This document shows, one piece after another, positions 768 to 43,565 of a stretch of 64,000 nt of DNA. The DNA is from Filifactoraceae bacterium (lineage in GTDB: Bacteria; Bacillota; Clostridia; Peptostreptococcales; Filifactoraceae): positions 867 through 64,866 of the forward strand of contig JBGZSM010000069.1 of NCBI GenBank assembly GCA_041853585.1, given 5' to 3'. The notes beneath the pieces are model-generated. The model searched no databases. It worked only from the letters and a program-made list of their open reading frames with translations, and had not been told where the DNA came from. Within the stretch, counting starts at the first letter, position 1. Every line of letters starts with the position of its first letter. The position numbers were made by a program, and so were the translations under genes.

Positions 768-1004
768 AAGTGTCTTTATGAACAAAAAAGTTAAAGTGAA
801 TTTTGTAAAAAATAGCTAAAAATTCTTTTTGTATGTTACAATATAATCAAATCAATCGAATGACATGACACAATAAGAACGGATTTTAGTTGAAAAATTG
901 CAGTAAGGAAAGTGAAATTTGATTGATGCAAGAATGGACCTTTGTAATGTAGGCTTTAGCAGAACAGAAAATTGATTTCCTTTTGCTCAAAACAAGGAGG
1001 ATTT

Positions 1005-2042
1005 ATGACGGCGGATTTTTATAAAAAAGCACTCGACTGCTCTTCCGACGGTATTTTAATTACGGATGAGCAGGGCAATGTTATTTATGTCAACGAGCAA
1101 TATGAAGAAGTCACCGGATTGCAAGCATCCGATTTGCTCGGTCGGAATTTGGCGAAATTGCTGGAAGAAGGAATCATCAGCCGCGCCATATCGCTGGAAG
1201 TCATCGAAACGGGTCAAAGGGTATCGACCATACATAGTTACATCACCGGAAAATCGGCGCTCAGTACGGCAAATCCGATTTATGATAATGAAAACAAGCT
1301 TCGCGGAGTGGTAAACAACACGAGGAATCTCAATACGCTAATCGCTTTGCGTGAAGAGCTCAAGCAAAGTCAAGAGTAAACCAAACATTTTCCCGCAGAG
1401 GTTGTCCATCTGCGCCAGGTTTTGTCCAAGACCAAAAGTTTTATCTATCGCAGCAAACAGATGCAGCGCATCATCGATTTGTCTCAGCGCGTCGCATTGT
1501 ACGACAGCACCGTTTTGATCGAGGGCGAATCCGGAACGGGAAAAGAAGTGATGGCACGGCTCATCCACTACAGCAGTCCGAGGCGGGAAGAACCTTTTAT
1601 CAAGGTCAACTGCGCGGCGATTCCAAGCGAGCTTTTCGAATCCGAATTATTCGGTTATGAAAAAGGAGCTTTCACCGGCGCGAGTGCTATCGGTAAAATC
1701 GGTATGTTTGAATTGGCAAACAAAGGCACGCTTTTGATGGATGAAATCGGAGAGCTTCCTTCCAAAATCGTCGGATTATATCCTCAAAAAGGAGTGCTTC
1801 AAATCGGTTCGGATGCGGATATCGTCGTTTTCAATCCGGATTTTGAAGGTGTTATTACACATGCCGACAGCTATGAGGGAACGGACTATGCAGCCTATGA
1901 AGGCTTCCCGCGAAAAGGAATTGCCGAAAAAGTATTCCTGCGTGGAAAACTGATGACGGAAAACGGAAAACTCGTGGCGGAAAAAGGTAAAGGTCAATAT
2001 ATCAAGCCGAAACCTTATGCCTATGTATATCAGGTAAGATAG
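1005..2042 (+). pseudogene. Decayed PAS / sigma54-interacting AAA+ activator with an in-frame TAA, fused in frame to the C-terminal ~90 aa of a dihydropyrimidinase/D-hydantoinase
   Basis: The PAS-like N-terminus (ORF 972-1379, RBS-supported ATG at 1005) and ORF 1422-2042 are in the same frame, separated by TAA at 1377-1379. The second ORF has the Walker A motif GESGTGKE and Walker B motif [10 protein letters not shown]. It then switches abruptly at about nt 1760 to [26 protein letters not shown]...[23 protein letters not shown], which is a cyclic amidohydrolase C-terminus. Confidence 0.7.
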
Positions 2043-2206: not shown

Positions 2207-2713
2207 TTACGCTGCCGGTTTGCTCATGCTGAATGATTTTTCAATTTCTACGACAATTCTTGTCGCTTTTTCAGCCGACACATTCAGTACGACGGCATGG
2301 ATGACATTTTCCGAATCGGCAAAGACCCAAGCTATCGATTTGTCGTCGTCTGCCACCACGCTCGCTTTTTGTGCGTCATATTCACCGATTTTGATATCTT
2401 TTTCGACTTTAAATTGCTCTCTCGTAACGCTGTTGTTCTCCATCGCAGAATCCATAAAAGCTTCCAGTGCAATATCGGTTGTCGTCTCTTCATCCGCCGG
2501 ACCGAAGTTCAAAAATCCAATCGTTGCGCCCGACATATTGTCCGTAAAAAATGCGCTGTTGTCATCTTTTTTGCCCTCTACCCAATCGCCTTTCACGGAA
2601 GCATATCCCAATCCATCTGCTCCAATCGTCATCAGCTTGGAGTGGGTACATGCCGTAACTAAAACAAGAATCAGCAAGATAGCCGACAGTTTGTAAATTT
2701 TTGTTTTTTTCAT
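2207..2713 (-). CDS. Lipoprotein of unknown function
   Basis: An RBS (aaaggagg) precedes the ATG at 2713. The protein begins MKKTKIYKLSAILLILVLVTAC, a lipobox signal peptide. It lies 45 nt downstream of the radical SAM operon. Confidence 0.65.
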   Translation of the reverse strand: MKKTKIYKLSAILLILVLVTACTHSKLMTIGADGLGYASVKGDWVEGKKDDNSAFFTDNMSGATIGFLNFGPADEETTTDIALEAFMDSAMENNSVTREQFKVEKDIKIGEYDAQKASVVADDDKSIAWVFADSENVIHAVVLNVSAEKATRIVVEIEKSFSMSKPAA

Positions 2714-2757
2714 TTGTTTTTCTCCTCCTTTTGTAATAAACAATTCCGCATAATGCA

Positions 2758-4080
2758 TCAAATAATATTTGGCGTGATGCGTCGTTTGATTTGGTAGCGA
2801 TAGTACAGATTCGCGCCCAAGTAAAACAGATAGCGTGCCGGTTGTTTGAAAAATTCTTTTCGAAGAATCGTCCGCTCCAAAATCGATCTCAGCTCAAACA
2901 CTTTGTTGTAGAGCGCCCAATATTCCTCCGTCAATTCTTCCGGCGTCATATTCTTCGGGATATGCACCGCCTGACTGCCATTGTAGGAATACATATCCTG
3001 AATGTAGATTCGATTCTGCGCCTTCATCTCATCATAGTATTTCGTGCCCGGAATCGGTGTCAAAATATAGAATCTCGGAACCACAATTTTGTTTTTACGA
3101 ATAAAATCCGCCGTTTGCCGAATCGATTCAATCGTATCTCCATCGGCGCCGACGACCATTTCGGTGGAAATGTCGATACCATGCCTTTGAATATTGCAAA
3201 TGAGCTTAGGATAGTCCTGTACCCTCGCCCATGATTTGTTCATGCTGTCCAAGCTCTCCTGCAAAATGCTTTCCAATCCGAAGCTGAGCGTTGTGCATCC
3301 GCTCTTCGCCAATTTTTCCAAAAGTTCATCGTCCTTGCCGATCTCGATGGAGCATTGGCTCATCCACTGCATCCTAAGCGGAATGATATAGTCGAGCAAT
3401 TCCATCATATAGCTGCGGTCGGACATGATATTGTCGTCCAGCAGCATGAATTTGCGAAAGCCGAGCGAGCGAATATGCTCTATATCGCGCACGACATCTT
3501 GAATCGGACGACGAATGTATTTGTTCTTATACAGACAATACACCGAGCAGAAGCTGCAGGACTTCGGGCATCCTCGTCCCGCCTGAACGGGAAGCATGTC
3601 ACCGATTTTTTTGTCGAGCACCAATTCGAATCGCGGCAATGGCGTATTGATTTCGGAAATCGGCATTTGATACTCGGATTTCAAATTGCCTTCTTCAAAA
3701 TCCTTTATCATTTGCGGATAGGAAAACTCGCCGTCGCCGATGATGACGGTATCGCAATATTTTTTTGCTTCCTGTGCCATCAGACTGACCATGTAGCCGC
3801 CCATAAATACGGTCTTGCCGCGCCTTTTAAATTCTTTGGCGATGTCGATGCTTCGAACGACCGCATGCCCCATGCTGCCGATGCCGATGAGGTCCGCATC
3901 GGTGTCGAAGGGAATATCCTCGATGGTTTCAAATATGATTTCAACCGTCCAGTCGGGCGGCGTGAGCGCTGCCAAAAGCGGCATTGCCAAGCCGACAAAG
4001 TATAGTCTCGATTTTTTAATCGGATTCTTGTCATTGTCATAGGGCGACGATTGAATCAACAGGATTTTTTTCTTTCTCAT
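2758..4080 (-). CDS. B12-binding-domain radical SAM protein (paralog 4 of the cluster, most divergent)
   Basis: N-terminal Rossmann-like segment (KKILLIQSSPY...DLIGIGSM), radical SAM motif CPKSCSFC, and a later FYILTPIPGTKYY segment. The ATG at 4080 overlaps the upstream TGA by 1 nt. Confidence 0.8.
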   Translation of the reverse strand: MRKKKILLIQSSPYDNDKNPIKKSRLYFVGLAMPLLAALTPPDWTVEIIFETIEDIPFDTDADLIGIGSMGHAVVRSIDIAKEFKRRGKTVFMGGYMVSLMAQEAKKYCDTVIIGDGEFSYPQMIKDFEEGNLKSEYQMPISEINTPLPRFELVLDKKIGDMLPVQAGRGCPKSCSFCSVYCLYKNKYIRRPIQDVVRDIEHIRSLGFRKFMLLDDNIMSDRSYMMELLDYIIPLRMQWMSQCSIEIGKDDELLEKLAKSGCTTLSFGLESILQESLDSMNKSWARVQDYPKLICNIQRHGIDISTEMVVGADGDTIESIRQTADFIRKNKIVVPRFYILTPIPGTKYYDEMKAQNRIYIQDMYSYNGSQAVHIPKNMTPEELTEEYWALYNKVFELRSILERTILRKEFFKQPARYLFYLGANLYYRYQIKRRITPNII

Positions 4081-5453
4081 CAACAACCTCTTATCATTTT
4101 CATAAAGTATTGTCGGCTGACAAAAGCGCTTCCCCACGACATTTTGAGCACTTCTTTGAGACCGTATTTTTTTATCATCTTAACGATGCTGCGCGGACGC
4201 ATCACAATGCGATAGTAGAGCAAAATGATTTGCCAATAATATGCTCGAATGCTCATATGCGCCGGTTGCAGAACGATATGCGCCAAATCCCACTTCGGAT
4301 AATCTTCGCGCGTGACGATGATGTCGTCGGCATAGCTCTCAAAAATATCCGTCCCCGGCAATGGGGTGAGCGGCTGCAAATTGACAAAGGTGATATCCAT
4401 CTCTTTGATATGTTTCTCCAGCTCGCGAAAATCATTCTTGCTGTAATCCAAATTGAGTATCATCGTCGCATACAGCTCAATCTGATATTTTTTGAGAATA
4501 TCGACCGCTTTGCGATTGGTTTCGACCGTCGTCTTTTTGTTGAAATTCTGCAAATCTTTTTTTCGAACGGATTCGATGCCGACGATGACGGCGCGCAATC
4601 CGTTTTTGGAAAGCCGCTCTATCAGCGCTTCGTTGTTGGCAATAAAATCCGCTCTGCCGTAAACCAAAAATCGCTTATCCAATCCTTCACGCTCGAGCAA
4701 ATCGCAAAATGTATTCAATCGTTTCGGATTGTATAAAAAATCATCATCCACAATGTAAATTTCCTGCTCCGGTATGCTTTTGAGCTCATCGATGACATCG
4801 TGAATGTCTCGCGCAAAATATTTGCCGTCGGTCACCTCTTTGCAGAAACAAAAGCTGCAATCGAAAGGACAGCCGAAGGAAGTTTTGACCAGAGCGCAGG
4901 GATTGTGGAACATATAATAATATCGCGCGCGATACTTCGCCACCTTGTGACGAGCGGGTGGATGATAAGGAAAGCTCGCAAGCTTCTCCTGCTTCATGCC
5001 GGCGCGATAGGTTCCGCGAATATGCTCATCGCTTAAATCATTTTGTTTTTTCTCCATCGCTCTGTCAACGATGCGCGAGAAAGTACCAATCGGGTCCGCG
5101 CAGATAATATAGTCGATATAATCGTCCAAAAAATCTTCGGGCACGACTTCCGCATGCACCCCGCCCGCCACCGTAATCGTTTGAGGCGAAATTTCTTTTA
5201 TAATGCGCGCATATTCTTTGACAACGCCGACATGGGTGATATATCCGGTAATCCCGACCACATCGGGACGGTATTTTTCGATATAAAATTCCAGCGGCTT
5301 TTTCTCCAAAATCATATCCAAGATTGTCACTTCCGCCTTTTTGTCGGAAATGTTGGCAGCCACATACTCGAGCTCCAGCGGCTCGCAAATCATGACATGC
5401 TGCAAACCGATGGTCTCTTTCGGAGGCCTCGGTCTAATCAACAGAATCTGCAT
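4080..5453 (-). CDS. B12-binding-domain radical SAM protein (paralog 3)
   Basis: MQILLIRPRPP...DVVGITGY...GGVHA, followed by TSFGCPFDCSFC (CxxxCxxC). RBS aaaggag. Clearly paralogous to the ORFs at 6078-7448 and 8355-9779. Confidence 0.8.
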   Translation of the reverse strand: MQILLIRPRPPKETIGLQHVMICEPLELEYVAANISDKKAEVTILDMILEKKPLEFYIEKYRPDVVGITGYITHVGVVKEYARIIKEISPQTITVAGGVHAEVVPEDFLDDYIDYIICADPIGTFSRIVDRAMEKKQNDLSDEHIRGTYRAGMKQEKLASFPYHPPARHKVAKYRARYYYMFHNPCALVKTSFGCPFDCSFCFCKEVTDGKYFARDIHDVIDELKSIPEQEIYIVDDDFLYNPKRLNTFCDLLEREGLDKRFLVYGRADFIANNEALIERLSKNGLRAVIVGIESVRKKDLQNFNKKTTVETNRKAVDILKKYQIELYATMILNLDYSKNDFRELEKHIKEMDITFVNLQPLTPLPGTDIFESYADDIIVTREDYPKWDLAHIVLQPAHMSIRAYYWQIILLYYRIVMRPRSIVKMIKKYGLKEVLKMSWGSAFVSRQYFMKMIRGC

Positions 5454-6078
5454 CTTTTCTCCTTTTTCGAAAAACGCTTACCAAAATCGTAGGCATCCAT
5501 CGCCTTACCCGAATCACGAACATATCCTGAATAACCAAATCGGGATTGCAAAGCGATATCACTTCCTGCTTGGAGAGATACTTCGCCATGCCTGTCGTCG
5601 TCTTGGTCAAGGTGAATGCGATTTTGTCATACCAATTGTTAACCGAGCCATGCGCCAGTATGAGCAGCCCGTCCTCTTTCAAAAGCGTCGTCATATCGCG
5701 CACCGCCTTTTGCTGATTCTCATAATAGGGCAAGGAATGTGTGCAGGTGATGATGTCAAATCGCTCCCCGATGCTCAAAAGTTCTCCGACATCCTTGAGC
5801 AAAAATTTGGCAGCGGTATTTTTTTGCGTCGCGACATCAATCATCCCCTGCGAATAGTCGATGCCGAGTAGGGAAACATCCTTTCCGAAGCGCTGCTCAA
5901 TATCCACCAAAAGCTGCCCCGTTCCGCAGCCGATGTCGAGCAGCTTCTTCCATTCCTCTGACCGGTATTTTGCAATCGTTGAGAGCACCGCTTCTCTCGT
6001 TACGGATAAAGAATATTTTTGCATCCACAACCGCTCGTAGCGTCTCGACCAGTAATTCCAAATTTTTTTATTCGACAT
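5434..6078 (-). CDS. Class I SAM-dependent methyltransferase
   Basis: Motif I LLDIGCGTGQL, with a downstream FDIITCTHSLPY segment. It overlaps both neighbours (1 nt and 20 nt). Confidence 0.75.
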   Translation of the reverse strand: MSNKKIWNYWSRRYERLWMQKYSLSVTREAVLSTIAKYRSEEWKKLLDIGCGTGQLLVDIEQRFGKDVSLLGIDYSQGMIDVATQKNTAAKFLLKDVGELLSIGERFDIITCTHSLPYYENQQKAVRDMTTLLKEDGLLILAHGSVNNWYDKIAFTLTKTTTGMAKYLSKQEVISLCNPDLVIQDMFVIRVRRWMPTILVSVFRKRRKDADSVD

Positions 6079-7448
6079 CAGTCCAAATACATCTTTCTCA
6101 GCAAGTATCGCGACAGCATTCTTTTGAAATATTTCAAATCCAAAAAGTCATACAGCCCCGCCTTGCGTGCTCTCTTGTAAAGTTTCATAAACAAATCGTA
6201 ATAATGACGATAGAATTGCTTTTTCGTCAAATTTTTCGGCTCGAGCACGAGATGTAAAAAATCCCAGTCCTCAATATTGTCCGAGATGATTTCATCCTTG
6301 TATTCTTCATACAGCGGCGTGCCCGGAATCGGTGTGAAAATCGAAATCGTGACATGCATCACCTGATTTTGAACAACCCAATCGTAAATTCTGTCAAAAT
6401 CCTCCTTGGTCGCTTCGACACCGACAATCATCAGCGCAATACATTCGCCGCCCGCTTCCCGAATGACGCGCACCGCCTGCTCATTGTTGGTTACGGAAGT
6501 TCGCTTATTGTACGCGAGCAATTCTTTGTCGCTCGTCGCTTCGAGTCCGACCAAAAAATATTTGAATCCGATATCGACAAGCGCTTGGACGATTTCTTTA
6601 TTTTGTGACACGAAATCGGCTCGGGCGTAACAAGTGTAGGTTTTTTGAATTCGATTCTCTTTGACCAGACGAATGAACTCCCACAGTCTTTTTTTATCCA
6701 CCAAAAAATCATCATCGACGATTTGAATATTATCGACCTCTATCCCGCGAAGCTCCTCGATGACCAAATCCAAATCGCGCACCTGATAGCTGCCCTGATT
6801 GAGCAAGGTGCAATAACAGAATTTGCAATCGAAGGGACAGCTGAACGATGTCTTGAGCGTCGCCATCGGCGTCATATCCAAATATCGAAATCGATGCTTA
6901 TGCTCGTAGAAAAAACTTCGCTCGGGAATCGGCAAGCTGTTGATATCGACTCGCTCATACGGATTGACAATCCAATTTCCCGATTTATCCCGATGACAAA
7001 GCCCGTTGATTTCCGATGGAGAAATCGCCGGCTTCACTTTCTTTTTCAGAGATTCAATCATCCTTATCAAGTCAACGAAGCCGTCCACCGATTCGCTGCG
7101 TACGATAAAATCGATGTTTTCATCATAGAAACGCTGATAATTCAGCTGCGCATGGACTCCTCCGACCAGCGTGACGATGCTCCTGCGAAACTTTTTCGCT
7201 TCGGCAAACATTCTCTTCATCACATTTTCATGAGTCAGATAGCCGGTGATGGCGACCACATCGGGATCGTATTTTTTTAATACCTTTCTAAAAGGCTTGT
7301 TCTCACAAATATAGTCAAAGATATAATCTTCGTAGCCTGCCTGCATCAAGCCCGTATGCAAATACTCCAACTCCAAAGGCTCATTGTCAAGCATGCCTGT
7401 AAAACTCAATTTATTCGGTGCCGGTGGTCTTACCAAGAGCACTTTCAT
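6078..7448 (-). CDS. B12-binding-domain radical SAM protein (paralog 2)
   Basis: MKVLLVRPPAPN...DVVAITGY...GGVHA, followed by TSFSCPFDCKFC. The start at 7448 was chosen from the RBS aaaagga. Confidence 0.8.
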   Translation of the reverse strand: MKVLLVRPPAPNKLSFTGMLDNEPLELEYLHTGLMQAGYEDYIFDYICENKPFRKVLKKYDPDVVAITGYLTHENVMKRMFAEAKKFRRSIVTLVGGVHAQLNYQRFYDENIDFIVRSESVDGFVDLIRMIESLKKKVKPAISPSEINGLCHRDKSGNWIVNPYERVDINSLPIPERSFFYEHKHRFRYLDMTPMATLKTSFSCPFDCKFCYCTLLNQGSYQVRDLDLVIEELRGIEVDNIQIVDDDFLVDKKRLWEFIRLVKENRIQKTYTCYARADFVSQNKEIVQALVDIGFKYFLVGLEATSDKELLAYNKRTSVTNNEQAVRVIREAGGECIALMIVGVEATKEDFDRIYDWVVQNQVMHVTISIFTPIPGTPLYEEYKDEIISDNIEDWDFLHLVLEPKNLTKKQFYRHYYDLFMKLYKRARKAGLYDFLDLKYFKRMLSRYLLRKMYLD

Positions 7449-7476
7449 AATATCCATCCTTTTCCAATTGAAGCGA

Positions 7477-8313
7477 CTACCGATGCTCTTCGCTCGGCAC
7501 CAAGTCAATCACCACATATTCCGGACGATTGTAAAAACGCGGAATTCTTGTCGATTCTCTCGCCAATCCGCGACTGACAATCATCTTGTAATTCTCAAAT
7601 TCATACAGCCCGCCCGCATATTTCGGAAACAATCCCTGATTCGGTGCGAGCAATCCGTTGAGCACACCGGGAATTCGCCATTGTCCTCCATGAGCATGCC
7701 CTGCCATCAAGAGATCAAAATCGCGATATTGCTCGTAGCGCTCCGGACGATGAGTCAGCAGAAGCGAATAGATGTCGGGCTCGATTGTTGACTTGGCTTT
7801 TTCCAGTTGATTTTGCCAAGCGGACTCCCCGATATCGACATCATCGATGCCGAACAAATTGACGCGCTCTCCGCGAATGTTCAGTTCCACTTTGTCGCCT
7901 TCAAGCACCGTGATATTGTAATCGAGAATCGCAGATTTTAATCGAAGCAGCTCCTTTGTCCAACATTCATGATTGCCCGACACATAGTAACTCGGATATT
8001 TTTCTCCCGCCCAGCTCAAAAATTCCCATGCCTTGTCCTCTGGCAAATTGTCGTCGATGATATCGCCCGCGAGGAGCAGCACATCGGGTCTGCTCTGCTC
8101 GATGGCTTCGGTCAAAGTATGCTGTTTTTCTCCGTAATTGCAGCTGTGCAAATCCGCAACGAGCGCAATTCGAATCGGTTTTTGAATTCTTGAATCGGCG
8201 ATGGTGTAGTTCACCACCTCAAGTCGTTGGTCCAATCCCATGCCCAGCAGCAAGGCAGCCGCTCCGGCAACCACCAACATTCGTTTATTCTTTCTTCTTT
8301 TGTTCTTCTTCAT
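7477..8313 (-). CDS. Membrane-anchored metallophosphoesterase (calcineurin-like, YkuE/YaeI type)
   Basis: N-terminal basic plus transmembrane segment, then the motifs IALVADLH, AGDIID, SGNHE and GHAHGGQ. Confidence 0.8.
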   Translation of the reverse strand: MKKNKRRKNKRMLVVAGAAALLLGMGLDQRLEVVNYTIADSRIQKPIRIALVADLHSCNYGEKQHTLTEAIEQSRPDVLLLAGDIIDDNLPEDKAWEFLSWAGEKYPSYYVSGNHECWTKELLRLKSAILDYNITVLEGDKVELNIRGERVNLFGIDDVDIGESAWQNQLEKAKSTIEPDIYSLLLTHRPERYEQYRDFDLLMAGHAHGGQWRIPGVLNGLLAPNQGLFPKYAGGLYEFENYKMIVSRGLARESTRIPRFYNRPEYVVIDLVPSEEHR

Positions 8314-8354
8314 CTTGCTCCCACTCTGCTGAATCTCATTTTGCGAAATTCAGC

Positions 8355-9779
8355 TTATTCCATTTCCAAATCGCGCCAATTCGCTTTGATGGCTCTTTCT
8401 CTTTTTCCGGCAGTCCAAAAATTTTTGATATAGACCGAAATCAATGTGTTGAATCCGAAAAGCATGCGCATCGTGTTGCCGATTGGAAATGCTTTGACGG
8501 TATACTTAACGGAATGTAAATTGAGATTAACGCCGAAAGTGAATTTAAGCACTTCCCAATAGTATCTGCGCAAGCTCATTTTGGACGGCATGATAAGCAC
8601 ATCGCCGAAATTCCATTTGTCATAATCCGTTTCGTCGTAGAGCAGTCGGCTCTTGTACTGCTCAAAAAGCGGGGTGAGCGGGTGCGGATTGAGCGGCGAA
8701 AAGGTCAGCAAGTCCGGCTTGAGCAATTTTTTGTACGCATTGAGCTTTTTGAAATCCGATTTATCCCAATCCGGATGCAAAATGAAGGAGCCCCAACATG
8801 CGATATTATGCGCGCGCAAAATTTCGGTCGCCTTCAAATTCTCGTCCACTGTCGCCGATTTATTATATTTTTTAAGCTGCGCATCGTCAAAGCTTTCATA
8901 GCCGACGATGACCGCAGTCAATCCGTTTTTTCTCAGTCTTGTAAAAAGTTCCGGCTTCTCTAAAATCGAATTGACGGAGCCGTAGCAGATATATTCTTTG
9001 CGAATATTTTTTTCTTCGAGCAGCTCGCAAAAACGCTCCAAACGCTTTCGATTGATTAAAAAGTCATTGTCGCAAATCATGATATAGGGCTCTTCCAAAT
9101 CGCCCAGCTGTTTGACGATGTCCTCAATCGGCACCTCGCGAAGCGCTGCTCCTTCAAGTTTCCAGCGCACGCAAAATTCGCAGCGATTTCGACAGCCGAA
9201 GGAAGTTTGAATCACCGCGCAGGGCTGAAATCCGACATAGCGATATTCCTTGCGATAGCGCTTGGTCGATTCGGTGTCCGGCACGATGTATTCGTTGAAA
9301 CAAAATTCCTTTTCATTTATAAAATCAAGCTCTTGACTGAAAATCCCTTCAATTGCTTCCGTCAGTTTTTCTCCCGTTTCAATTTTTTGCATCAATTCCT
9401 TGTAATTGGCTCTGGTCGTTGATTTGAATACATGATCGACCGACTCGTCAAAAAACGAATTCGGATAGACCGTCGCCTGCACGCCGCCGACGATGACCGC
9501 CGTATTCGGATTGTGTTTTTTTACGATTTTTGCAATGCCGAGCACATTTTCCACATCGGTGCATTGCGATGTAATCCCGACCGCATCGGGTAAAAATTTG
9601 TCCAAGTAGGCTTCGACTTTCGCATTCGTCTCCACCATAAAATCGGCGAGCAATACCTCATGCCCCTGCTCTTTCAAAATCGTCGAAACACATTCTATTC
9701 CGAGCGGCTCACCGAACAGAAAGTTTTTAACCGTTGTAATCTTCTTGTTGACCCAAGGTCTTATCAGTAAAATTCTCAT
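8355..9779 (-). CDS. B12-binding-domain radical SAM protein (paralog 1)
   Basis: MRILLIRPWV...DAVGITSQ...GGVQA, followed by TSFGCRNRCEFC. RBS gaggaaggga precedes the ATG at 9779. Confidence 0.8.
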   Translation of the reverse strand: MRILLIRPWVNKKITTVKNFLFGEPLGIECVSTILKEQGHEVLLADFMVETNAKVEAYLDKFLPDAVGITSQCTDVENVLGIAKIVKKHNPNTAVIVGGVQATVYPNSFFDESVDHVFKSTTRANYKELMQKIETGEKLTEAIEGIFSQELDFINEKEFCFNEYIVPDTESTKRYRKEYRYVGFQPCAVIQTSFGCRNRCEFCVRWKLEGAALREVPIEDIVKQLGDLEEPYIMICDNDFLINRKRLERFCELLEEKNIRKEYICYGSVNSILEKPELFTRLRKNGLTAVIVGYESFDDAQLKKYNKSATVDENLKATEILRAHNIACWGSFILHPDWDKSDFKKLNAYKKLLKPDLLTFSPLNPHPLTPLFEQYKSRLLYDETDYDKWNFGDVLIMPSKMSLRRYYWEVLKFTFGVNLNLHSVKYTVKAFPIGNTMRMLFGFNTLISVYIKNFWTAGKRERAIKANWRDLEME

Positions 9780-9837
9780 TCCCTTCCTCACTTTATTCAC
9801 TACTCCCGTTGCATTGTATCATATTTTTGTAGAATTT

Positions 9838-10800
9838 TTATAGTTTCATACAATGAATTTCACTTCTCTCCCCTCGATGCTCCAATCGCCTAGCAAGAAT
9901 ATCCAAAATTTTTCGCGGTAAATACCGGGAAGCGATATGCAGATGCAGCGCCTTCTCCCGCGCACCGACACGCAATTTCGAATATGCCGTCGTCTGCCCG
10001 AGATGAATTTTGTCAAACCCTTCGCCGAGTTTTAAAATCTCCAGCAGAATATTTATATACAAATCATATTTTTTGTTCTGAGCATGTGCAAAGCCGCAAA
10101 AGAGAAAAATCAGCTCCTTGTCGAAGGCTCTGGTTTGGAAAAAACCGATGAGCTCCTTTTTTTCATTTGAGATTCGATACAGATTCGCATCGCATCTTTT
10201 GAAAAAATCGATGCCGAGCTTTTCCAGCTTCCCCTCGGAGCGCTCATAGACTTCTTCATAAAAAGCATAGAGTTTCTCATCGAAATTTGACGGATGAATG
10301 GATTCAAACACAAGATTTTTTCCTCTGTCCATCGCCTTACGAATTCGGTAGCGATAGTGGCTGCGCATCTTGCTCAAATAAATTTCAAAATCGTCCACCA
10401 CCGTGTGAAAACTCGGCAGGGTCTTACCCTTGGCAAGCCGAAGTCCTCCATCGGTGTTAAGCACGAGCAGCAGCGCAAAGCTCGAAAGATATTTTTCCAA
10501 TATCGGCAAATTCTCCCTCGGGCAAGCATACCCGGCGCTCGCGACCGAAAGCGGAATGCCGGCAATTTCTATCGGCAAACGAAGCGATAATGTTTGGCTG
10601 AAGGTCAGAATATCCAATTTCAAACGATAAGTAATGAGCAGGATTTGATATTTTTCATGGAAATGATATCGCTGATGACAGGGATTGACCTCCTCCATAA
10701 AACTCAAAAATTCTCTTTTCAAAAAAGGATTGCTCGAGCATTCATCCCAACGAGCCGGCAAATCCTTCGCGCTGTCAAAAATCACAAATTCCGTCTTCAT
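9838..10800 (-). CDS. FemAB-like / DUF482-type GNAT-fold acyltransferase
   Basis: N-terminal W..C..NPFLKREFLSFMEE signature, and a C-terminal half resembling the BioF2/FemAB-like acyltransferase fold. ATGA overlap with the upstream GNAT gene. Confidence 0.5.
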   Translation of the reverse strand: MKTEFVIFDSAKDLPARWDECSSNPFLKREFLSFMEEVNPCHQRYHFHEKYQILLITYRLKLDILTFSQTLSLRLPIEIAGIPLSVASAGYACPRENLPILEKYLSSFALLLVLNTDGGLRLAKGKTLPSFHTVVDDFEIYLSKMRSHYRYRIRKAMDRGKNLVFESIHPSNFDEKLYAFYEEVYERSEGKLEKLGIDFFKRCDANLYRISNEKKELIGFFQTRAFDKELIFLFCGFAHAQNKKYDLYINILLEILKLGEGFDKIHLGQTTAYSKLRVGAREKALHLHIASRYLPRKILDILARRLEHRGERSEIHCMKL

Positions 10801-11867
10801 AGATTGATTTCAAACACTTTGTAATGCTTGCTTTCTTTTTTTATAAAATGAGTTGTCACATTTTTGGAGCTTGAATTGTCATCCAATATCCAGCCCGACT
10901 CGATGAAACGGTATTTTTCTTTGTTGAGCTCATAGCAATGCTTGAGCAGCGCATAGAGCGCCGCCGAGCGACGGTACTTCGGGATGATGCCGAATTCCGT
11001 AAACTTCAGCGTATCAATCAGCCCCGGCAGGAATCGGCTCTTCAAAAAGGCCATCAATCCCAGTTCCTGTCCTCCGCTGATGAGCTGATTGAAATCGGGA
11101 TACCAAAGAATGAATCCGACCGGCAAATCATCCTTGTAGGCGAAAAGCAAATTTTCCGGTTTCAAAAAGAGTTTGTATTCATTAAACAGCTCGATATCTT
11201 CCGCCTCTCTGCTCTCATAATAATATTCATGCTCGGCGAATGCGAGATTGTTGATTCTCCCGTAAATCTTGGCCGTCTTTTCGATATGTTGAAAATCCGC
11301 ATGGCGAACTTCAAACTGCGCCATTCGTTGCTCCAGCGCGGGCGATGGATTGAGCTTGATGTCCTCAATCAACCCTTTGTAGCTCACGAGATTTTTTGTC
11401 GTCGTCGCCAATTTTTCCAAATGCTCGGTATAATATGCGGGATTGTACGCGCTGCCGATGCTCTGCACTTTGTCAAAATCGCTCGCAAGCAGACCCAAAC
11501 CATAGTTGACATGAAAATTGAGTCCGATGAGAATGCTTCGAATCCGTCGTTCTTTTGCAAATTCCTTGGCGAAATCGACGATGGCTTTGGCAATCTCAAA
11601 ATCATTTCTCATTTCCAAAAAAGCGATTTGCAACTTGTCCGCCATTCTGTCAATCACCGCCAAAAATGCCATGCCTACGATTTGATTATTTTTCTCCGCC
11701 ACAATCGGCACGATTTCGGATTTTTTCTGAATCTCCATCTTTCCGGCGAACAATGCTTTCAGCGTTCTGCTCTGATGGTCCCGATAATTTGAATTGCCTC
11801 GATAGATTTCCTTTTGAAAATGCAGCATCGCTACAAAATCCTCCGGCTTTGCGAATCGTACAATCAT
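10797..11867 (-). CDS. Long (~356 aa) GNAT-family acyltransferase, paralog of 26913-27977
   Basis: Shared architecture and the YNP.YY motif with the second copy. GNAT-like C-terminal half (GIIPKYRRSAALYALL). First gene of the radical SAM operon. Confidence 0.6.
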   Translation of the reverse strand: MIVRFAKPEDFVAMLHFQKEIYRGNSNYRDHQSRTLKALFAGKMEIQKKSEIVPIVAEKNNQIVGMAFLAVIDRMADKLQIAFLEMRNDFEIAKAIVDFAKEFAKERRIRSILIGLNFHVNYGLGLLASDFDKVQSIGSAYNPAYYTEHLEKLATTTKNLVSYKGLIEDIKLNPSPALEQRMAQFEVRHADFQHIEKTAKIYGRINNLAFAEHEYYYESREAEDIELFNEYKLFLKPENLLFAYKDDLPVGFILWYPDFNQLISGGQELGLMAFLKSRFLPGLIDTLKFTEFGIIPKYRRSAALYALLKHCYELNKEKYRFIESGWILDDNSSSKNVTTHFIKKESKHYKVFEINL

Positions 11868-11881
11868 TTTTGCTCCCCTAC

Positions 11882-11912
11882 GAAAAAAGGATAGGGCTGC
11901 TTTCCTATCCTT
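11882..11912 (-). terminator. Terminator/attenuator hairpin immediately upstream of the radical SAM operon
   Basis: On the minus strand, aaggatagg-aaagcagc-cctatcctt is followed by TTTTTT. It lies only about 15 nt before the first start codon at 11867. Confidence 0.55.
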
Positions 11913-11953: not shown

Positions 11954-12400
11954 TTATTTTACAGTAAATCCTTGAGCTGTCAACGCCTCTTCAACTTTTT
12001 GCATGCTTGTCACCTGCTCAGGGTCAATTGTCATTCCGCCTGCAATCTCAGAGATTTTTTCCAAATCCACTTTAGAATAATCTACCGATGAAGTCATCAC
12101 GATAGTTTCTCCGTCAATCACATATTCATTAGTAATACCTTCTACCGGCTGAACCGCAGACTTCATTGTCTCGACTGTTTTTTCAGCCTGCTCTTTGTTT
12201 TCAATCATCATCGATGCGAAAGGCATTACCGTTTTCATATCCAACTTTGTGATCTTATCACCTTCATGAGTATAAGTCATCTCTGTTGCTATTCCGTTAT
12301 CTTCATGTGTAAATGTTTTTGTTGCTGATTTTGAACCACATGCTGTAAGGGCAAGCATAAGCACCATCACAGCTACCAAACCTTTCAATAGTTTTTTCAT
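11954..12400 (-). CDS. YehR/DUF1307-like lipoprotein
   Basis: MKKLLKGLVAVMVLMLALTAC lipobox. The mature sequence pattern (TF..E.NG....MTYTH.GDKI.K) is typical of DUF1307. Confidence 0.6.
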   Translation of the reverse strand: MKKLLKGLVAVMVLMLALTACGSKSATKTFTHEDNGIATEMTYTHEGDKITKLDMKTVMPFASMMIENKEQAEKTVETMKSAVQPVEGITNEYVIDGETIVMTSSVDYSKVDLEKISEIAGGMTIDPEQVTSMQKVEEALTAQGFTVK

Positions 12401-12740: not shown

Positions 12741-13487
12741 CTATCCGAGCTCTCCATCCGTCATATCTTCGACGAGATGACGCCAATAATATTTCGGCAA
12801 ATTGCTCTGCTGCAATTTTTTATTTTGACGCTCGCGAATCGAAATGCTTTTATGAAAAACATTCCACAAAAATGCGTATTCCAATTCGGCATCGCTCCAC
12901 TTGATTTCGACTTTTTCGGTAAAAAATAAATCGATGCGCTGTCCGTCATAGTATGCGAGCATATTTCTTTTTTTGTCATAGATAGCAAATCGCTCTCGCA
13001 CCAGTCGATTTTTAAAATGGGAAAGCAGTATCGGCAACACATTATTTTTCGGCTCAATGGTCGAAAACAATGTGCCGTCGTGCATTTCTCGAAATCGCAG
13101 AAGTCCCAGATAGCGATGACGCTCACGCAACACATTGCGCACCAACTTGTTCATTTGCAAGGCATATTCGTCCACCGATTCCAAAATCCCTTCTCCACAT
13201 TCCATCGCCCGAAAAATCATCCGCACGATGATTTCGTCTTTGTGCGGCTCGCAGGACAAAAAACAGGCTTGCAAATCCGCAAAAAATTGATACGAAAATT
13301 TTTCGCGCAGATATTTTTCAACGCGCCGCGCTTTTTCAACATCGGTCGCCACATAGATTTCGCTCGTGTCAAAGGCGAGCTGCTCCGGCTCGGCGCTGAT
13401 TCTTCCTAGTTCTTTACGGTGTTTGTAGGATTCAAAGACGACGCTCAACAGACCGTCAAAATCCCCGTCATAGTAATAATGATACAT
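12741..13487 (-). CDS. DUF4130 / TIGR03915-type probable DNA metabolism protein
   Basis: MYHYYYDGDFDGLLSVVFESYK N-terminus and RF.E..DG.L....EP...V C-terminal half. It overlaps the stop of the radical SAM partner gene. Confidence 0.7.
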   Translation of the reverse strand: MYHYYYDGDFDGLLSVVFESYKHRKELGRISAEPEQLAFDTSEIYVATDVEKARRVEKYLREKFSYQFFADLQACFLSCEPHKDEIIVRMIFRAMECGEGILESVDEYALQMNKLVRNVLRERHRYLGLLRFREMHDGTLFSTIEPKNNVLPILLSHFKNRLVRERFAIYDKKRNMLAYYDGQRIDLFFTEKVEIKWSDAELEYAFLWNVFHKSISIRERQNKKLQQSNLPKYYWRHLVEDMTDGELG

Positions 13488-14767
13488 TACTCCCCTCCAT
13501 TTCCCAATAATGAAGCGGCATTTGCTTTGTCAAAAAAACCGATTTGCTGAACCGCAGGCTTTTCTCCTTCGAGCAAAAGATTTCGGATGCTGCTCGGATT
13601 TTCCTTATACAAACCGTAATATTTCCCATCGACCGTAATAAAATACTTCGCGCGTTTGAGCACCACGCCGATTTTCTTCAAATGCTCGTATTGAATTTTA
13701 CTATGCTTTCGCGCTTTGATGATGCGCAGCGCTGAAGTGACACCCAAACCGGGAATGCGTAGCAAATCATTATAGGACGCCGTATTGATCTCCATCGGGA
13801 AGCGATGCCAGTTGTGAATCGCCCAATTCGCCTTCGGGTCGAGCAGCGGGTCGAAAAAAGCATTCTGCTCGCTGAGCAATTCGTCGGCGCGAAATTTATA
13901 AAACCGCAGCAACCAATCCGCTTGATACAGGCGATGCTCACGAAGCATCGGCGCAGCACCGACATGAGCCAGCGCGCCCGTTTTGTTCACCGGAATGTAG
14001 GCGGAATAATACACTCTTTTGAGTCCGAAACCATTGTAAAGTTGCTCGCTCTTGTTTAAAATCGTGTAATCGCTTTCGCCGCTCGCGCCGATAATCATCT
14101 GCGTCGTCTGTCCCGCCGGCACAAAACTCGGCGTGCTCTTAAACAATGCTTTCTCCTGAAAGCGCTGAATCTGATGACTATAAATCCGGCTCATCGATGT
14201 GATGATGTCGCTCACTTTTTTATCCGGTGCAAGCAGCTGCAGTCCCTGATTGTCCGCCATCTCAACATTCACCGAGACTCTGTCGACATACATGCCCAAG
14301 GTCTGTATCAATTCTTGGCTCGCTCCCGGAATCACCTTCATGTGAATGTAGCCGTTGAATTTTTCTTCGACGCGCAATCGTCGGGCAACGGCAATCAATC
14401 TTTCCATCGTGTAATCCGGATTTTTCAAAATGCCGGAGCTTAAAAAAAGTCCTTCGATATAATTTCGACGATAGAAGTTGATGGTCAAATCGACGATTTC
14501 ATCCGGCGAAAGTGTCGCCCGCTCGATATCGTTGCTGCGTCGGTTGACGCAATAAGCGCAATCGTAAGCGCAATGATTGCTCATCAATATTTTGAGCAAT
14601 GAAATGCATCGCCCGTCCGCCGACCATGAATGACAGATGCCGCTCTTTGCCGCGTTTCCGATTCCATCCGTCGTATTTTTTCGCTCGCTGCCGCTGGATG
14701 AGCAAGACACATCGTATTTTGCCGCGTCGCTGAGAATTCTTAACTTGTCCTGTGTCGATTGATTCAT
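13487..14767 (-). CDS. Putative DNA modification/repair radical SAM protein (HhH C-terminus)
   Basis: DAAKYDVSCSSSG...CAYDCAYCVNR radical SAM motif, with a C-terminal LLRIPGLGVTSALRIIKAR helix-hairpin-helix. The start ATG at 14767 is supported by the RBS aaggaggag. Confidence 0.8.
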   Translation of the reverse strand: MNQSTQDKLRILSDAAKYDVSCSSSGSERKNTTDGIGNAAKSGICHSWSADGRCISLLKILMSNHCAYDCAYCVNRRSNDIERATLSPDEIVDLTINFYRRNYIEGLFLSSGILKNPDYTMERLIAVARRLRVEEKFNGYIHMKVIPGASQELIQTLGMYVDRVSVNVEMADNQGLQLLAPDKKVSDIITSMSRIYSHQIQRFQEKALFKSTPSFVPAGQTTQMIIGASGESDYTILNKSEQLYNGFGLKRVYYSAYIPVNKTGALAHVGAAPMLREHRLYQADWLLRFYKFRADELLSEQNAFFDPLLDPKANWAIHNWHRFPMEINTASYNDLLRIPGLGVTSALRIIKARKHSKIQYEHLKKIGVVLKRAKYFITVDGKYYGLYKENPSSIRNLLLEGEKPAVQQIGFFDKANAASLLGNGGE

Positions 14768-15193
14768 TTGCTCCTCCTTGCTCAATTTCCGGATTCGAAT
14801 CGGGATTGCAGACGGACTTTACCGCCTCCGTTGATTTATATATCCAATTAAACTTGATTTCGAATCTCGCTTCTTTTCCATTCCGTATTTACTTTTACAT
14901 TTCACTTGCAATTGTGATTTCGGTTTTCTATTCGATTCTTATTCCGATTTAAAGTGCACTCACTTTTCGAAAAAATTCATCCGCAACTTTTCCCGAAAAT
15001 ACATCATAACTATTCTTTTTAATTTCTTTTTTTCTTATATTTTTCCGTTTACGATATTATATCACGCGAAAAAGAAAAAAACCGGAAATCTTGAAAATTT
15101 TTTCGATAAATTTTTTGAAAGGCTTGCCAAGGATATTTTTTTGCGATACTGTTAAAGAAAGGAATACGAAAAAATTTATAAGGACGGAGAACT

Positions 15194-16406: not shown

Positions 16407-17477
16407 TTATTTTGTCTTTGATTTCTCTTTCAGCCATTTGGAAATAAGTGGAGCGACTTCTTTTTTCGCTTTGGAACTCACATACATTCCGATATGTCCC
16501 GTCGGTATTCCGTGAGTCTCAATATCTTTCGTTCCGACATATTTTGCAAGCGGAATACTTGCAGCCGGCGGCACGATATGGTCTTTTTCCGCATATACAT
16601 TGAGTACGGGCATTGTGATATTTTTCAAATCCACCTTCGCATCGCCAATCATCATCTTGCCTTTAATCAATTTGTTTTCTTTGTAAAGGTCATTGATGAA
16701 TTGTCGAATTGTTTCTCCCGCTTGACCCGGACTGTCAAAAATCCAGTTCTCCATACGCAGGAAGTTGTTCATCACTTCCGGTTTGTCAAAGTCATCAATG
16801 AGGTTGAGATATTTTCCAACCATCAGCGAAATCGGCTTCATTGTCAAGAATCCGTTGTTCATAAAATCGCCCGGAATGACTCCGTACGCATCGACCATCT
16901 TGTCAATGTCCAGATATTTTCCCCATCGGAACAACAATCCGTCATCCGTTGAGAAATCCACCGGTGCAACCATCGTTACCAACGCATTGATATTTTGCGG
17001 ATGAAGTGAAGAGTACATTAAAGAGAAAGTTCCGCCCTGACATACGCCGAGCATATTGATTTTCTCTTTTTTGGAATGTGCCTTGACCGCCTCGACCGCA
17101 TTATCGATATAGCCTTGAATATAATCTTCCAAAGTCAGATATCTGTCTTCCGCTGTCGGATATCCCCAGTCGATAATATACAGATCCTGCCCGTCTCTGA
17201 GCATATTCTGCACAAAGCTCGTATCTTCCTGCAAGTCCATCATGGTCTCGCGATTTACCAAAGCATAGACAATCAGAGTCGGTACTTTGTTGATGCTTCG
17301 AACAAGCGGTTTGTATCGATACACTTTCATCTTGTCTTCCGAATAAATCAATGTTTTCTCGGAGAAACCCGGCTCCGGGTCTCCTGCATGAAGCATCGTT
17401 TCAAATCCCTCAAGCAATTTTTTCTGAGTTTGTATGCTTTCCTCAAAGCTTTTCTTCCAATCAAATGTTTTGTCCAT
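16407..17477 (-). CDS. phaC: Class III poly(R)-hydroxyalkanoate synthase catalytic subunit
   Basis: About 355 aa alpha/beta hydrolase with the lipase-box-like GVCQGG (Cys nucleophile) and a conserved C-terminal H (TGHIGMYVS). Confidence 0.8.
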   Translation of the reverse strand: MDKTFDWKKSFEESIQTQKKLLEGFETMLHAGDPEPGFSEKTLIYSEDKMKVYRYKPLVRSINKVPTLIVYALVNRETMMDLQEDTSFVQNMLRDGQDLYIIDWGYPTAEDRYLTLEDYIQGYIDNAVEAVKAHSKKEKINMLGVCQGGTFSLMYSSLHPQNINALVTMVAPVDFSTDDGLLFRWGKYLDIDKMVDAYGVIPGDFMNNGFLTMKPISLMVGKYLNLIDDFDKPEVMNNFLRMENWIFDSPGQAGETIRQFINDLYKENKLIKGKMMIGDAKVDLKNITMPVLNVYAEKDHIVPPAASIPLAKYVGTKDIETHGIPTGHIGMYVSSKAKKEVAPLISKWLKEKSKTK

Positions 17478-17507
17478 TAAAAATTCTCCCTTCAAGATAC
17501 ACATAAT

Positions 17508-18806
17508 CTACTCCTGAGTCTGAACCGGAACAACGGCCTGCGCTTTTTTCATTGCTTTCAGTTCTTTTTTCAATTCGTAAATCGTTTTATACAGGCTGTC
17601 AATCTCACTTCTTGTCACGATTGGTGTATCCGAGAGATATCTTTCAACCAATTTTTGCATCTCGATTTTGTAATCCATCGCCGCAGAAGAAAGTTGACCC
17701 AACATCTTCGCATATTCCGGAGTGGCAAAGTAAGAATCGAAAACCCCTTCCAATTCATTGGACCAGTAAGTGTAGAACTCATTGAAAGTTTTTGGCTGTG
17801 TTCCCTGCTCCGCCATTTCAAGATACTTTTTAATCATATCATCCAGATTCTCATTTTGCACCGCAAAAATTCTGGAAGTGAAATCCGTACTGAGCAATAC
17901 CATATCCACATAGGTGTCAAAAGCCTTGCTCTGTTGCTCAATAAGCTCCTTGTTTATGCCCAGCGAAGGAGAAAGCAAAATCGCTCCGAAAGTTCTGTCA
18001 AACTGTGCTCGCCAAAGCTCAAAGAACTCGCCGAGTTTGGTTTTGTCCGTCAGCACACCTTCAACGAACAAATCACGAAGCTGTTTTGCATTGCTTGTCC
18101 ACGGCTCAAAGAAATTGCCATTTGTTTTTGCATACGCTTTGAACAGCTCAAACGGATCTTTAGCAAAAGATTGGAACTCCTGAGGAAGCATCGGCAATAC
18201 CATATCTTTGAACATCACATCATATTTTTCAGCTAAAGTGGATGCATATTTTTTCACTTCATCGGAAATCGGTTTGATATGCGTATCTTCCAACTCTTTC
18301 CAGAACTTATATACATTCAGATAATATGTGTTCGCCTGCATCATTTTTTCCAGTAAATCTTTCGCCGCCGGGGTAAATGCCTTACCCATCTCCAGCGGAT
18401 TGTAATATCCTCTCAGCTTGTCAAAATATTCGTGGATGCTCTCCTGAGACTCTGCCCATTTGCTCATATCTACAAATGGAAAAGCGCCGGACTTTCCGAA
18501 GTTGGAAAAATCGGCCATATATTTGGACATCTGCTCCATATAATTCTTTTGCATATCCACGAAAAACTCAAATGCTTTCGGGTCAAAAGCCGGATTCTTA
18601 AAGTAATCCGTAAAAATCTTGCTCAACTCCGCCGGATTGTTTGTCCCCATCGTTTCCATAAATTTCTTTTGCATTTCAAAAAAGTCGCTCATAGATTTTG
18701 TATAAGGATTCTCGGAAACATTGGACATCTTTTTATACATATCCTGCCAAGATTCCATCATACTCTTTTGGCTATCCATCATCGTTTTGAAAAAATCATT
18801 GCTCAT
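17508..18806 (-). CDS. phaE: PhaE-like subunit of class III PHA synthase
   Basis: Immediately upstream of phaC. A repetitive F/W/M-rich helical protein with a C-terminal coiled segment (RSEIDSLYKTIYELKKELKAMKK), as in PhaE. Confidence 0.5.
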   Translation of the reverse strand: MSNDFFKTMMDSQKSMMESWQDMYKKMSNVSENPYTKSMSDFFEMQKKFMETMGTNNPAELSKIFTDYFKNPAFDPKAFEFFVDMQKNYMEQMSKYMADFSNFGKSGAFPFVDMSKWAESQESIHEYFDKLRGYYNPLEMGKAFTPAAKDLLEKMMQANTYYLNVYKFWKELEDTHIKPISDEVKKYASTLAEKYDVMFKDMVLPMLPQEFQSFAKDPFELFKAYAKTNGNFFEPWTSNAKQLRDLFVEGVLTDKTKLGEFFELWRAQFDRTFGAILLSPSLGINKELIEQQSKAFDTYVDMVLLSTDFTSRIFAVQNENLDDMIKKYLEMAEQGTQPKTFNEFYTYWSNELEGVFDSYFATPEYAKMLGQLSSAAMDYKIEMQKLVERYLSDTPIVTRSEIDSLYKTIYELKKELKAMKKAQAVVPVQTQE

Positions 18807-40684: not shown

Positions 40685-40695
40685 AGTTCCTCCTA

Positions 40696-41982: not shown

Positions 41983-42004
41983 AAAATCCTCCTTGCAATT
42001 TCCA

Positions 42005-42285
42005 ATAAAAAAAGCTCCTATCCCAAAAGGACAGAAGCTACTCCGTGATACCACCTTTATTTATTTTTGCCTCGCGACAAAAAACTCCGCGGGTACAATC
42101 ATACCCCGACGCTGTAACAGGCGCACCCGTCCGAGCCTACCTATCGACCCGGCCCACAAAAAGACCATCTTCCACACGATTTTTGTTATCCCCTCACACC
42201 CAACGGGGACTCTCTGAAACATACTTTCGAATGTACTCTTCTTTCTATAAGGTTTATTCGCGATCTCTCGCTTGATTTAATTTCG
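42005..42285 (-). promoter_or_regulatory. T-box leader, probably Met-specific, controlling metY-metA
   Basis: Minus strand reads: gaaagaagagta (S-turn/AGUA), cagagag (AG bulge), ttgggtgtga distal loop, ggaagATGgtc candidate specifier (42166-42168), T-box aaaggtggtatcacgg, then terminator agcttctgtcc-tttt-gggataggagct plus T7. Confidence 0.75.
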
Positions 42286-42288
42286 TTC

Positions 42289-43533: not shown

Positions 43534-43565
43534 ATCGACTCCATTCTCTTACAAGCGATTGGTCA

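Follow-up and report, generated by a model that had tools for sequence, protein, structure and literature searches.

We analysed a 64,000-nucleotide stretch of a Filifactoraceae bacterium genome (contig JBGZSM010000069.1 of assembly GCA_041853585.1, hereafter the window), which contains an operon of nine same-direction minus-strand genes running from position 11867 to position 2207 with a terminator-like hairpin at each end. The operon carries a conserved cassette with a six-to-seven-gene core, which codes for a tandem-GNAT N-acyltransferase (called GNAT below), a FemAB/Acetyltransf_6-like transferase (Fem-like), radical S-adenosylmethionine (SAM) enzymes that we named rSAM1 to rSAM4, with rSAM1 being optional, and a class I SAM-dependent methyltransferase. 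Each of these enzymes belongs to a known superfamily, and their combination matches no pathway in NCBIfam, the PDB or the searchable literature; a named function for the cassette is absent from every source queried. We classify the cluster as one of cobalamin-type radical SAM tailoring around an acyltransferase related to bacterial ceramide synthase. The ceramide-synthase homology of GNAT, the aminoacyl-lipid-synthase-like fold of Fem-like and the HpnR-like character of the radical SAM enzymes make us lean towards a lipid or lipoamino acid as the product.

The operon was first described in an earlier note made from the letters of the window. Its gene content and domain calls are borne out, and the gene overlaps that it reported are confirmed from the open reading frames (ORFs): 4 nucleotides between GNAT and Fem-like, 1 between rSAM2 and the methyltransferase, 20 between the methyltransferase and rSAM3 and 1 between rSAM3 and rSAM4, with a lipoprotein gene closing the series. 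The operon is not an orphan, as the note had it. Using the GNAT family as the query in a one-genome-per-species collection, we found a relative encoded at 261 places. Database relatives number only about 200, all of ~358 residues, and are annotated either as hypothetical protein or as generic GNAT N-acetyltransferase. The carriers are mostly anaerobic Clostridia, the majority from the Peptostreptococcales/Tissierellales (Sedimentibacter, Alkaliphilus, Acidaminobacter, Anoxynatronum, Acetoanaerobium and Peptoanaerobacter stomatis). Also among them are Johnsonella ignava, Lutispora, Youngiibacter, Candidatus Electrothrix laxa and metagenome-assembled genomes (MAGs) labelled Sumerlaeota and Spirochaetes. 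The nearest relative is a Peptostreptococcaceae MAG at 97% identity.

Genes were counted at the 55 loci with full flanks. GNAT and rSAM2 are present at all 55, rSAM3 and Fem-like at 54 each, rSAM4 at 52 and rSAM1 at 44. The methyltransferase is encoded by a separate gene at 49 loci. Five loci have no such gene. Four of these were checked and carry it as a fusion with a radical SAM gene; the fifth belongs to a close relative. The most frequent gene order, found at 29 loci, is GNAT, Fem-like, rSAM2, methyltransferase, rSAM3, rSAM4 and rSAM1. Besides the core, the operon of the window codes for a calcineurin-like phosphoesterase and the lipoprotein. As they are present at only 4 and 1 of the 55 loci, respectively, these are not core but accessory genes, limited to the clade of the window. 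Overall, the phosphoesterase is found only in the related loci L002, L009 to L012 and L014, and the lipoprotein only in the window, L001 and L009. Clustering of the flanking ORFs of 80 related loci yielded no further family kept across clades, be it of transporters, regulators, cobalamin genes, acyl carrier protein (ACP) genes or proteases. EamA and zf-CDGSH genes adjoin the cassette in Sedimentibacter only, where the same neighbours recur over many species; between clades, the genomic context varies. The note's view that the gene combination is not a characterised pathway stands. No cassette protein approaches an NCBIfam equivalog cut-off, literature searches by several keyword combinations and by the locus tags Amet_3489-3494 brought up nothing on the cluster, and reviews that deal with radical SAM enzymes of lipids or with synthases of membrane-spanning lipids do not describe it.

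Several loci depart from the usual arrangement. In Candidatus Electrothrix laxa, a cable bacterium far outside the Clostridia, the locus (L083, 9944-14074) is limited to GNAT, Fem-like, rSAM2 and the methyltransferase, with unrelated genes following. As it holds only four cassette genes, this locus suggests a minimal module, in which rSAM2 is the sole radical SAM enzyme. A single ORF of 920 residues covers rSAM3 and rSAM4 in the MAG that is the closest relative (L009, 14592-17354); it reflects either a genuine fusion or a mistake in the assembly. In Acetoanaerobium pronyense, an opposite-strand gene of 667 residues between Fem-like and rSAM2 splits the cassette (L016, 12037-14040); by eye, its product resembles a methyl-accepting chemotaxis protein. 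Lastly, the Filifactoraceae MAG D-51_MAG_33 has two GNAT copies, at 53% and 50% identity to that of the window, on short contigs (L013 and L014), one of them adjoining a phosphoesterase homologue. They may represent a duplicated cassette or a mixed bin.

GNAT scores 25.8 bits with Pfam Acetyltransf_1, whose cut-off is 20.7, and its AlphaFold2 model, with a predicted local distance difference test score (pLDDT) of 90.5, is that of a tandem GNAT. We found no sequence match to solved structures, even with profiles. In a tblastn search of annotated plasmids, distant full-length homologues were annotated as YghO or N-acetyltransferase. Aligning the GNAT family of the window with a YghO alignment using hhalign gave a probability of 99.9% and an E-value of 7e-33 over 352 columns, end-to-end, and BLASTP against the Pseudomonas homologue gave 26% identity (E-value 1e-16). 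By these alignments, GNAT is distantly homologous, over its full length, to the bacterial ceramide synthase (YghO/bCerS). The YghO genes of Escherichia coli, Rahnella, Pseudomonas and Rubrobacter adjoin genes for a pyridoxal phosphate (PLP)-dependent alpha-oxoamine synthase and a reductase dependent on nicotinamide adenine dinucleotide (NAD), and the first three loci also have genes for an ACP and a fatty acyl-AMP ligase. These YghO loci are the bacterial sphingolipid cluster (spt, ACP, fatty acyl-AMP ligase, cerR). YghO corresponds to aca, an acyl-coenzyme A (CoA) N-acyltransferase needed for dihydroceramide (PMC9386255), and bCerS, which is peripherally bound to the membrane, has 3-ketosphinganine as the substrate that it acylates (PMC11087976). 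Together, yghO and CC_1154 are described as genes for the acyl-CoA N-acyltransferase (bCerS) of dihydroceramide synthesis, a soluble protein at the membrane periphery (PMC9386255, PMC11087976, PMC11324152).

Fem-like has a Pfam FemAB_like match of 17.4 bits, under the cut-off of 27. A match to Acetyltransf_6 (E < 0.01) was obtained for 18 of 24 members of its family, and two relatives scanned singly exceed the 22-bit cut-off of that model. For its AlphaFold2 model (pLDDT 92), the top 26 Foldseek matches in the PDB are L-PGS, A-PGS, MprF, DUF2156, Sbb17/Sba18 and FemX/FemA proteins, with E-values from 1e-8 to 3e-6 and template modelling (TM) scores of 0.44-0.57. Going by these best matches, the predicted fold resembles those of transferases dependent on aminoacyl-transfer RNA (tRNA), including lipid aminoacylases. 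No extra domains were found in longer Fem-like homologues. Its only distant homologue on plasmids is part of a Nostoc gene cluster that also codes for a fatty acid desaturase, an acyl-CoA dehydrogenase, a glycosyltransferase and a DevBCA exporter. No relationship between the Fem-like and GNAT/bCerS families was detected (hhalign probability < 2%).

All four radical SAM proteins match Pfam Radical_SAM at 54.9-67.6 bits (gathering score 29.5), rSAM1 scoring 67.6. The motifs CRNRCEFC, CPFDCKFC, CPFDCSFC and CPKSCSFC pointed out in the earlier note are all present, and the cysteines of the CxxxCxxC motif are 100% conserved within each of the four orthogroups. The note had also given all four proteins a B12-binding-type N-terminus. 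This holds for rSAM1 (56.2 bits), rSAM2 (54.2 bits) and rSAM3 (67.3 bits), which pass the Pfam gathering score of 32.1 bits, but rSAM4 falls just under it at 29.3 bits. The description of rSAM1 to rSAM3 as close paralogs beside one divergent protein had to be revised. Their mutual identities are 28-33%, and their identity to rSAM4 is 23%. Clustering of 236 radical SAM sequences, 232 from related loci and the four of the window, gave four groups with one window protein each, of which those of rSAM1, rSAM2 and rSAM3 have 49, 69 and 59 members, respectively. The four enzymes are four old, non-redundant orthogroups, not recent paralogs, and this favours a separate step for each of them over one iterative enzyme. 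The proposal of iterative C-methylation on an acylated molecule or lipid therefore survives in part: an acylated substrate is likely, given the bCerS homology and the Fem-like fold, but the four orthogroups speak against a single enzyme acting iteratively.

The best named NCBIfam relatives of rSAM1 to rSAM3 are the hopanoid C-3 methylase HpnR (TIGR04367; 180.7, 152.1 and 175.3 bits, and 58.2 for rSAM4, against a cut-off of 650) and then BchE (TIGR02026; 133, 141.7 and 137.4 bits, and 79.5 for rSAM4, against a cut-off of 481). The best models for rSAM4 are PhpK-type, BchE, HpnJ and 'ladderane'. Matches of the radical SAM proteins to solved structures are weak and cover the radical SAM core only. 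For rSAM4, the nearest are AprD4 and 9ccb, the latter a B12-dependent radical SAM structure that is cited in work on MgmA, the glutamine methylase of MCR; there too the match is confined to the core. A fourth conserved cysteine is found in rSAM2 and rSAM3 (CxxxCxxCxC). rSAM4, which we rate as the most conserved gene of the cassette, has a CxxxCxxCxxxC motif and three further conserved cysteines (C109, C182, C243 and C262 being conserved), and GGYM replaces the GGxH motif (GGVH in rSAM2 and rSAM3). It may hold an auxiliary cluster and possibly binds no cobalamin; on these sequence features, cobalamin binding by rSAM4 is doubtful. No cobalamin genes were found among the ~30 flanking ORFs scanned in the window.

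The methyltransferase has BioC (61 bits) and CpaM (57 bits) as its best NCBIfam matches, with no cut-off reached. It is fused N-terminally to rSAM3 in Acidaminobacter and C-terminally to rSAM2 in two other lineages (L081 and L037), and the two kinds of fusion are of independent origin. As it is fused to each of them in other genomes, the methyltransferase probably works with rSAM2 and rSAM3.

We tentatively favour, with somewhat less than even confidence, an N-acylated amino-lipid or lipoamino acid that is then subjected to radical C-methylation or related chemistry. The step order, donors, lipid substrate and product identity of the following scheme are those that we infer from the observed gene content, conservation, homologies and fusions. 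Fem-like would install an amino-acid-derived amine on a scaffold, and the ceramide-synthase-like GNAT would N-acylate that amine with an acyl-CoA to give the N-acylated amino-lipid or lipoamino acid. The HpnR/BchE-type cobalamin radical SAM enzymes rSAM1 to rSAM3 would then modify unactivated carbons, the likeliest reaction being C-methylation. The cysteine-rich rSAM4 may catalyse C-methylation as well, or other radical chemistry. The class I methyltransferase would be a partner of rSAM2 and rSAM3, its target being a heteroatom of the same substrate or the cofactor of these two enzymes. In the clade of the window, the addition of an extracytoplasmic phosphoesterase and a lipoprotein suggests that the product or its head group may be processed at the cell surface. 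As the lead enzyme is a distant relative of bCerS, a heavily modified N-acylated amino-lipid is more likely than a peptide.

A number of observations weigh against a lipid product. The PDB structures that best match the GNAT model are glucosamine N-acetyltransferase, the clavulanate tandem GNAT and MshD, and no bCerS structure is among its matches. As the identity between GNAT and bCerS is 20-26%, its acceptor and acyl chain may differ from those of the ceramide synthase. Neither spt, cerR, an ACP, a fatty-acid-activating enzyme nor a lipid flippase was found in or near the cassette at the 80 related loci, and no core protein has a predicted transmembrane segment. Fem-like has no PDB relative by sequence, profiles included, and its best fold matches are modest (TM-scores of 0.5-0.57). 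Finally, the scores of the radical SAM proteins lie far under the equivalog cut-offs, and methylation rather than other radical chemistry is an assumption.

The main competitor is a soluble secondary metabolite, such as an N-acetyl- or N-acyl-aminoacyl small molecule or an aminosugar derivative, that would be C-methylated repeatedly by the radical SAM enzymes. We consider it possible, if on the unlikely side, and it stays a serious rival because spt, cerR, ACP and flippase genes and membrane segments are missing. By analogy, Fem-like could act as Sbb17/Sba18, PacB and DhpK do, GNAT could be acetyl-CoA-dependent like MshD and glucosamine N-acetyltransferase, and repeated C-methylation could take place as in the bottromycin, gentamicin or carbapenem pathways. 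It fits such a product that the top structural matches of the GNAT model are small-molecule N-acetyltransferases, that the Fem-like model reaches its highest TM-scores with Sbb17/Sba18, that all core proteins are predicted to be soluble, and that the genomic context varies by clade, as with portable biosynthetic clusters. Nevertheless, the nearest characterised relative of GNAT in sequence is a lipid N-acyltransferase, and no exporter, resistance gene or regulator is conserved alongside the cassette. Furthermore, the constant neighbours over many Sedimentibacter species suggest a housekeeping-type trait.

Readings that involve the cell wall, a RiPP (a peptide made by ribosomes and modified after translation) or a protein are less likely. 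In the first of these, the cassette would act on the cell envelope, where its target might be a precursor or a polymer (for instance, the stem peptide of peptidoglycan or a polymer of the teichoic-acid type), with the FemX-like enzyme adding an amino acid and the others tailoring it. FemX and FemA are indeed among the structural matches of Fem-like, whose Pfam match is FemAB_like, the window clade adds the extracytoplasmic phosphoesterase and the lipoprotein, and a LytR_cpsA_psr gene lies ~10 kilobases (kb) away. However, Mur, glycosyltransferase and flippase genes are not conserved alongside the cassette, envelope-facing genes are present at just 4 of the 55 loci, and to our knowledge no cobalamin radical SAM enzyme acts on peptidoglycan precursors, all of which makes this reading improbable. 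We consider even less probable the modification of a RiPP or protein encoded elsewhere, with C-methylation as by PoyB/C, MgmA or Mmp10 and acetylation of the N-terminus by GNAT. Such a role is hinted at by the nearest solved structure of rSAM4, 9ccb, through its citation in work on MgmA, an MCR glutamine C-methyltransferase, and by ApyD and rSAM_ocin_1 among the weak NCBIfam matches. The scores for RiPP families are nevertheless all far under their cut-offs, and no recognition-element protein, protease or transporter is conserved. Small ORFs of 12-110 residues within 1.5 kb on either side of the cassette at the 80 loci formed no family across clades, their clusters being shadow ORFs of flanking genes. 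The earlier note had seen no precursor peptide, protease or exporter; none is present, and none is conserved at the related loci.

The positions of the operon genes and of the two hairpins in the window are listed in the table.

Table. Genes of the operon and flanking hairpins (positions in the 64,000-nucleotide window)
Feature	Position	Strand	Size and basis
GNAT, tandem-GNAT N-acyltransferase, first gene	10797-11867	minus	356 residues; Pfam Acetyltransf_1
Fem-like, FemAB/Acetyltransf_6-like tandem-GNAT-fold transferase	9838-10800	minus	320 residues
rSAM1, B12-binding and radical SAM domains, CRNRCEFC	8355-9779 (ATG) or 8355-9800 (GTG)	minus	Pfam
Phosphoesterase, calcineurin-like, N-terminal signal/anchor segment	7477-8313	minus	Pfam Metallophos
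rSAM2, B12-binding and radical SAM domains, CPFDCKFCYC, core gene	6078-7448	minus	Pfam
Class I SAM-dependent methyltransferase, core gene	5434-6078	minus	214 residues; Pfam Methyltransf_31/25/11
rSAM3, B12-binding and radical SAM domains, CPFDCSFCFC, core gene	4080-5453	minus	Pfam
rSAM4, divergent radical SAM (CPKSCSFCSVYC), CPKSCSFC, core gene	2758-4080	minus	Pfam Radical_SAM
Lipoprotein, no known family, lipobox LVTAC, last gene	2207-2713	minus	read from sequence
Intrinsic-terminator-like hairpin and T-run, 20 nucleotides 5' of the first start codon	11887-11912	minus	
Terminator-like hairpin closing the operon, 3' of the lipoprotein gene	2058-2073	minus	

The junctions without overlap are gaps of 28-58 nucleotides. 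The starts of rSAM2 (456 residues) and rSAM4 (440 residues) were set by the gene calls on the identical public contigs L002 and L001, respectively. The phosphoesterase has a Pfam Metallophos match of 51.5 bits and an N-terminal hydrophobic anchor. It scores under the NCBIfam equivalog cut-offs of YaeI (86.9 against 188 bits) and LpxG (39.4 against 350 bits), and its predicted assignment holds at the superfamily level only. The phosphoesterase found beside the Pseudomonas sphingolipid cluster was considered as its kin, and the two are related only at that level. The lipoprotein has no Pfam or NCBIfam match.

No riboswitch or leader RNA was detected in the window with Rfam at gathering thresholds, and the same searches of seven related loci gave only two cyclic diguanylate (c-di-GMP) riboswitches, both distant from the cassette. 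The hairpin 5' of the first gene was considered as a leader RNA and folds as a plain terminator. It is nearly identical in L009, where the region is 98% identical. No promoter-like site was found between this hairpin and the first start codon; the nearest such site, TTGACA-16-TAAAAT (11956-11983, minus strand), overlaps the end of the upstream gene for a DUF1307 lipoprotein. Transcription of the operon may occur by read-through of the upstream hairpin, or the hairpin may be an attenuator.

Further from the operon, genes at 12741-14785 (minus strand) code for a DUF4130 protein (248 residues) and a radical SAM protein with a helix-hairpin-helix (432 residues), with a 1-base overlap. They resemble what we take to be a known putative DNA-modification or repair pair, and appear unrelated to the cassette. 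On the other side, at 972-2042 (plus strand), a PAS-only ORF (135 residues) is followed by an ORF with a partial sigma-54 activator AAA domain (206 residues); no DNA-binding domain was found in either. This arrangement would fit a sigma-54 enhancer-binding protein that has been split or has decayed, and the split is called likewise in contig L001. Genes for a class III polyhydroxyalkanoate synthase (PhaE subunit and PhaC-like alpha/beta hydrolase) lie at 16407-18806 (minus strand); the nearest relative of the genome that carries them is, as noted above, a Peptostreptococcaceae MAG. A block at 39722-45248 (minus strand) codes for a homoserine O-acyltransferase, a Cys/Met PLP enzyme, an aspartate-semialdehyde dehydrogenase and a fused aspartokinase-homoserine dehydrogenase. 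This block may be relevant as a supply of methionine and SAM; in other genomes, it is not linked with the cassette.

It is unusual for a single conserved pathway to have four different cobalamin-type radical SAM enzymes, and each of them is a candidate for a new C-H functionalization. The homology to bCerS offers a concrete and testable entry point, and some carriers are cultured organisms, both oral (Peptoanaerobacter stomatis and Johnsonella ignava) and environmental (Alkaliphilus, Sedimentibacter and Acidaminobacter). The cassette has the potential for a new lipid class and for new radical chemistry. Should the product be a membrane lipid, sphingolipid-like biology would extend to Gram-positive anaerobes; should it be a soluble metabolite, a new scaffold would arise from tRNA-dependent and GNAT chemistry. 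We also put forward a bolder proposal, which we regard as unlikely. The cassette would make a hitherto unknown membrane lipid class of anaerobic Clostridia and of the few lineages that acquired it, an N-acyl amino-lipid formed without serine palmitoyltransferase by an aminoacyl-transferase and a ceramide-synthase-like enzyme, with unactivated carbons methylated, cross-linked or rearranged by up to four dedicated cobalamin-type radical SAM enzymes. If so, it would be the functional counterpart of sphingolipids in Gram-positive bacteria, and methyl-branched signals that are as yet unassigned in the lipids of anoxic sediments, digesters and the oral cavity could stem from it.

Compared with known systems, GNAT shares with bCerS/YghO (Caulobacter CC_1154 and E. 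coli yghO) a tandem-GNAT architecture, a length of ~360-380 residues and a C-terminal SWIL-x-x-N motif, at an identity of just 20-26%. Unlike the spt-acp-aasR-cerR cluster, the cassette has no adjacent genes for serine palmitoyltransferase, ACP, acyl-ACP synthetase or the CerR reductase; conversely, Fem-like, the four radical SAM enzymes and the methyltransferase are absent from the sphingolipid clusters inspected. Fem-like has in common with the aminoacyl-tRNA-dependent GNAT-fold transferases, namely the aminoacyl-phosphatidylglycerol synthases L-PGS/A-PGS (the C-domain of MprF), FemX and Sbb17/Sba18, its predicted fold (Foldseek E-values of 1e-8 to 1e-7) and a size of ~300 residues made up of tandem GNAT-like halves. 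It differs in having no flippase or transmembrane domain. rSAM1 to rSAM3 resemble the class B radical SAM enzymes HpnR and BchE in their N-terminal B12-binding domain, their CxxxCxxC core and their near-full-length matches, whereas the cassette differs from the HpnR and BchE systems by having no hopanoid or bacteriochlorophyll genes and by placing four distinct enzymes in one pathway. The bottromycin pathway uses three cobalamin radical SAM methylases plus an O-methyltransferase. The cassette has no precursor peptide, YcaO protein, protease or exporter, and its scaffold-building genes code for two GNAT-fold transferases. What the cassette shares with such multi-methylase pathways is a set of several non-redundant cobalamin-type radical SAM enzymes and one class I methyltransferase encoded in a single operon.

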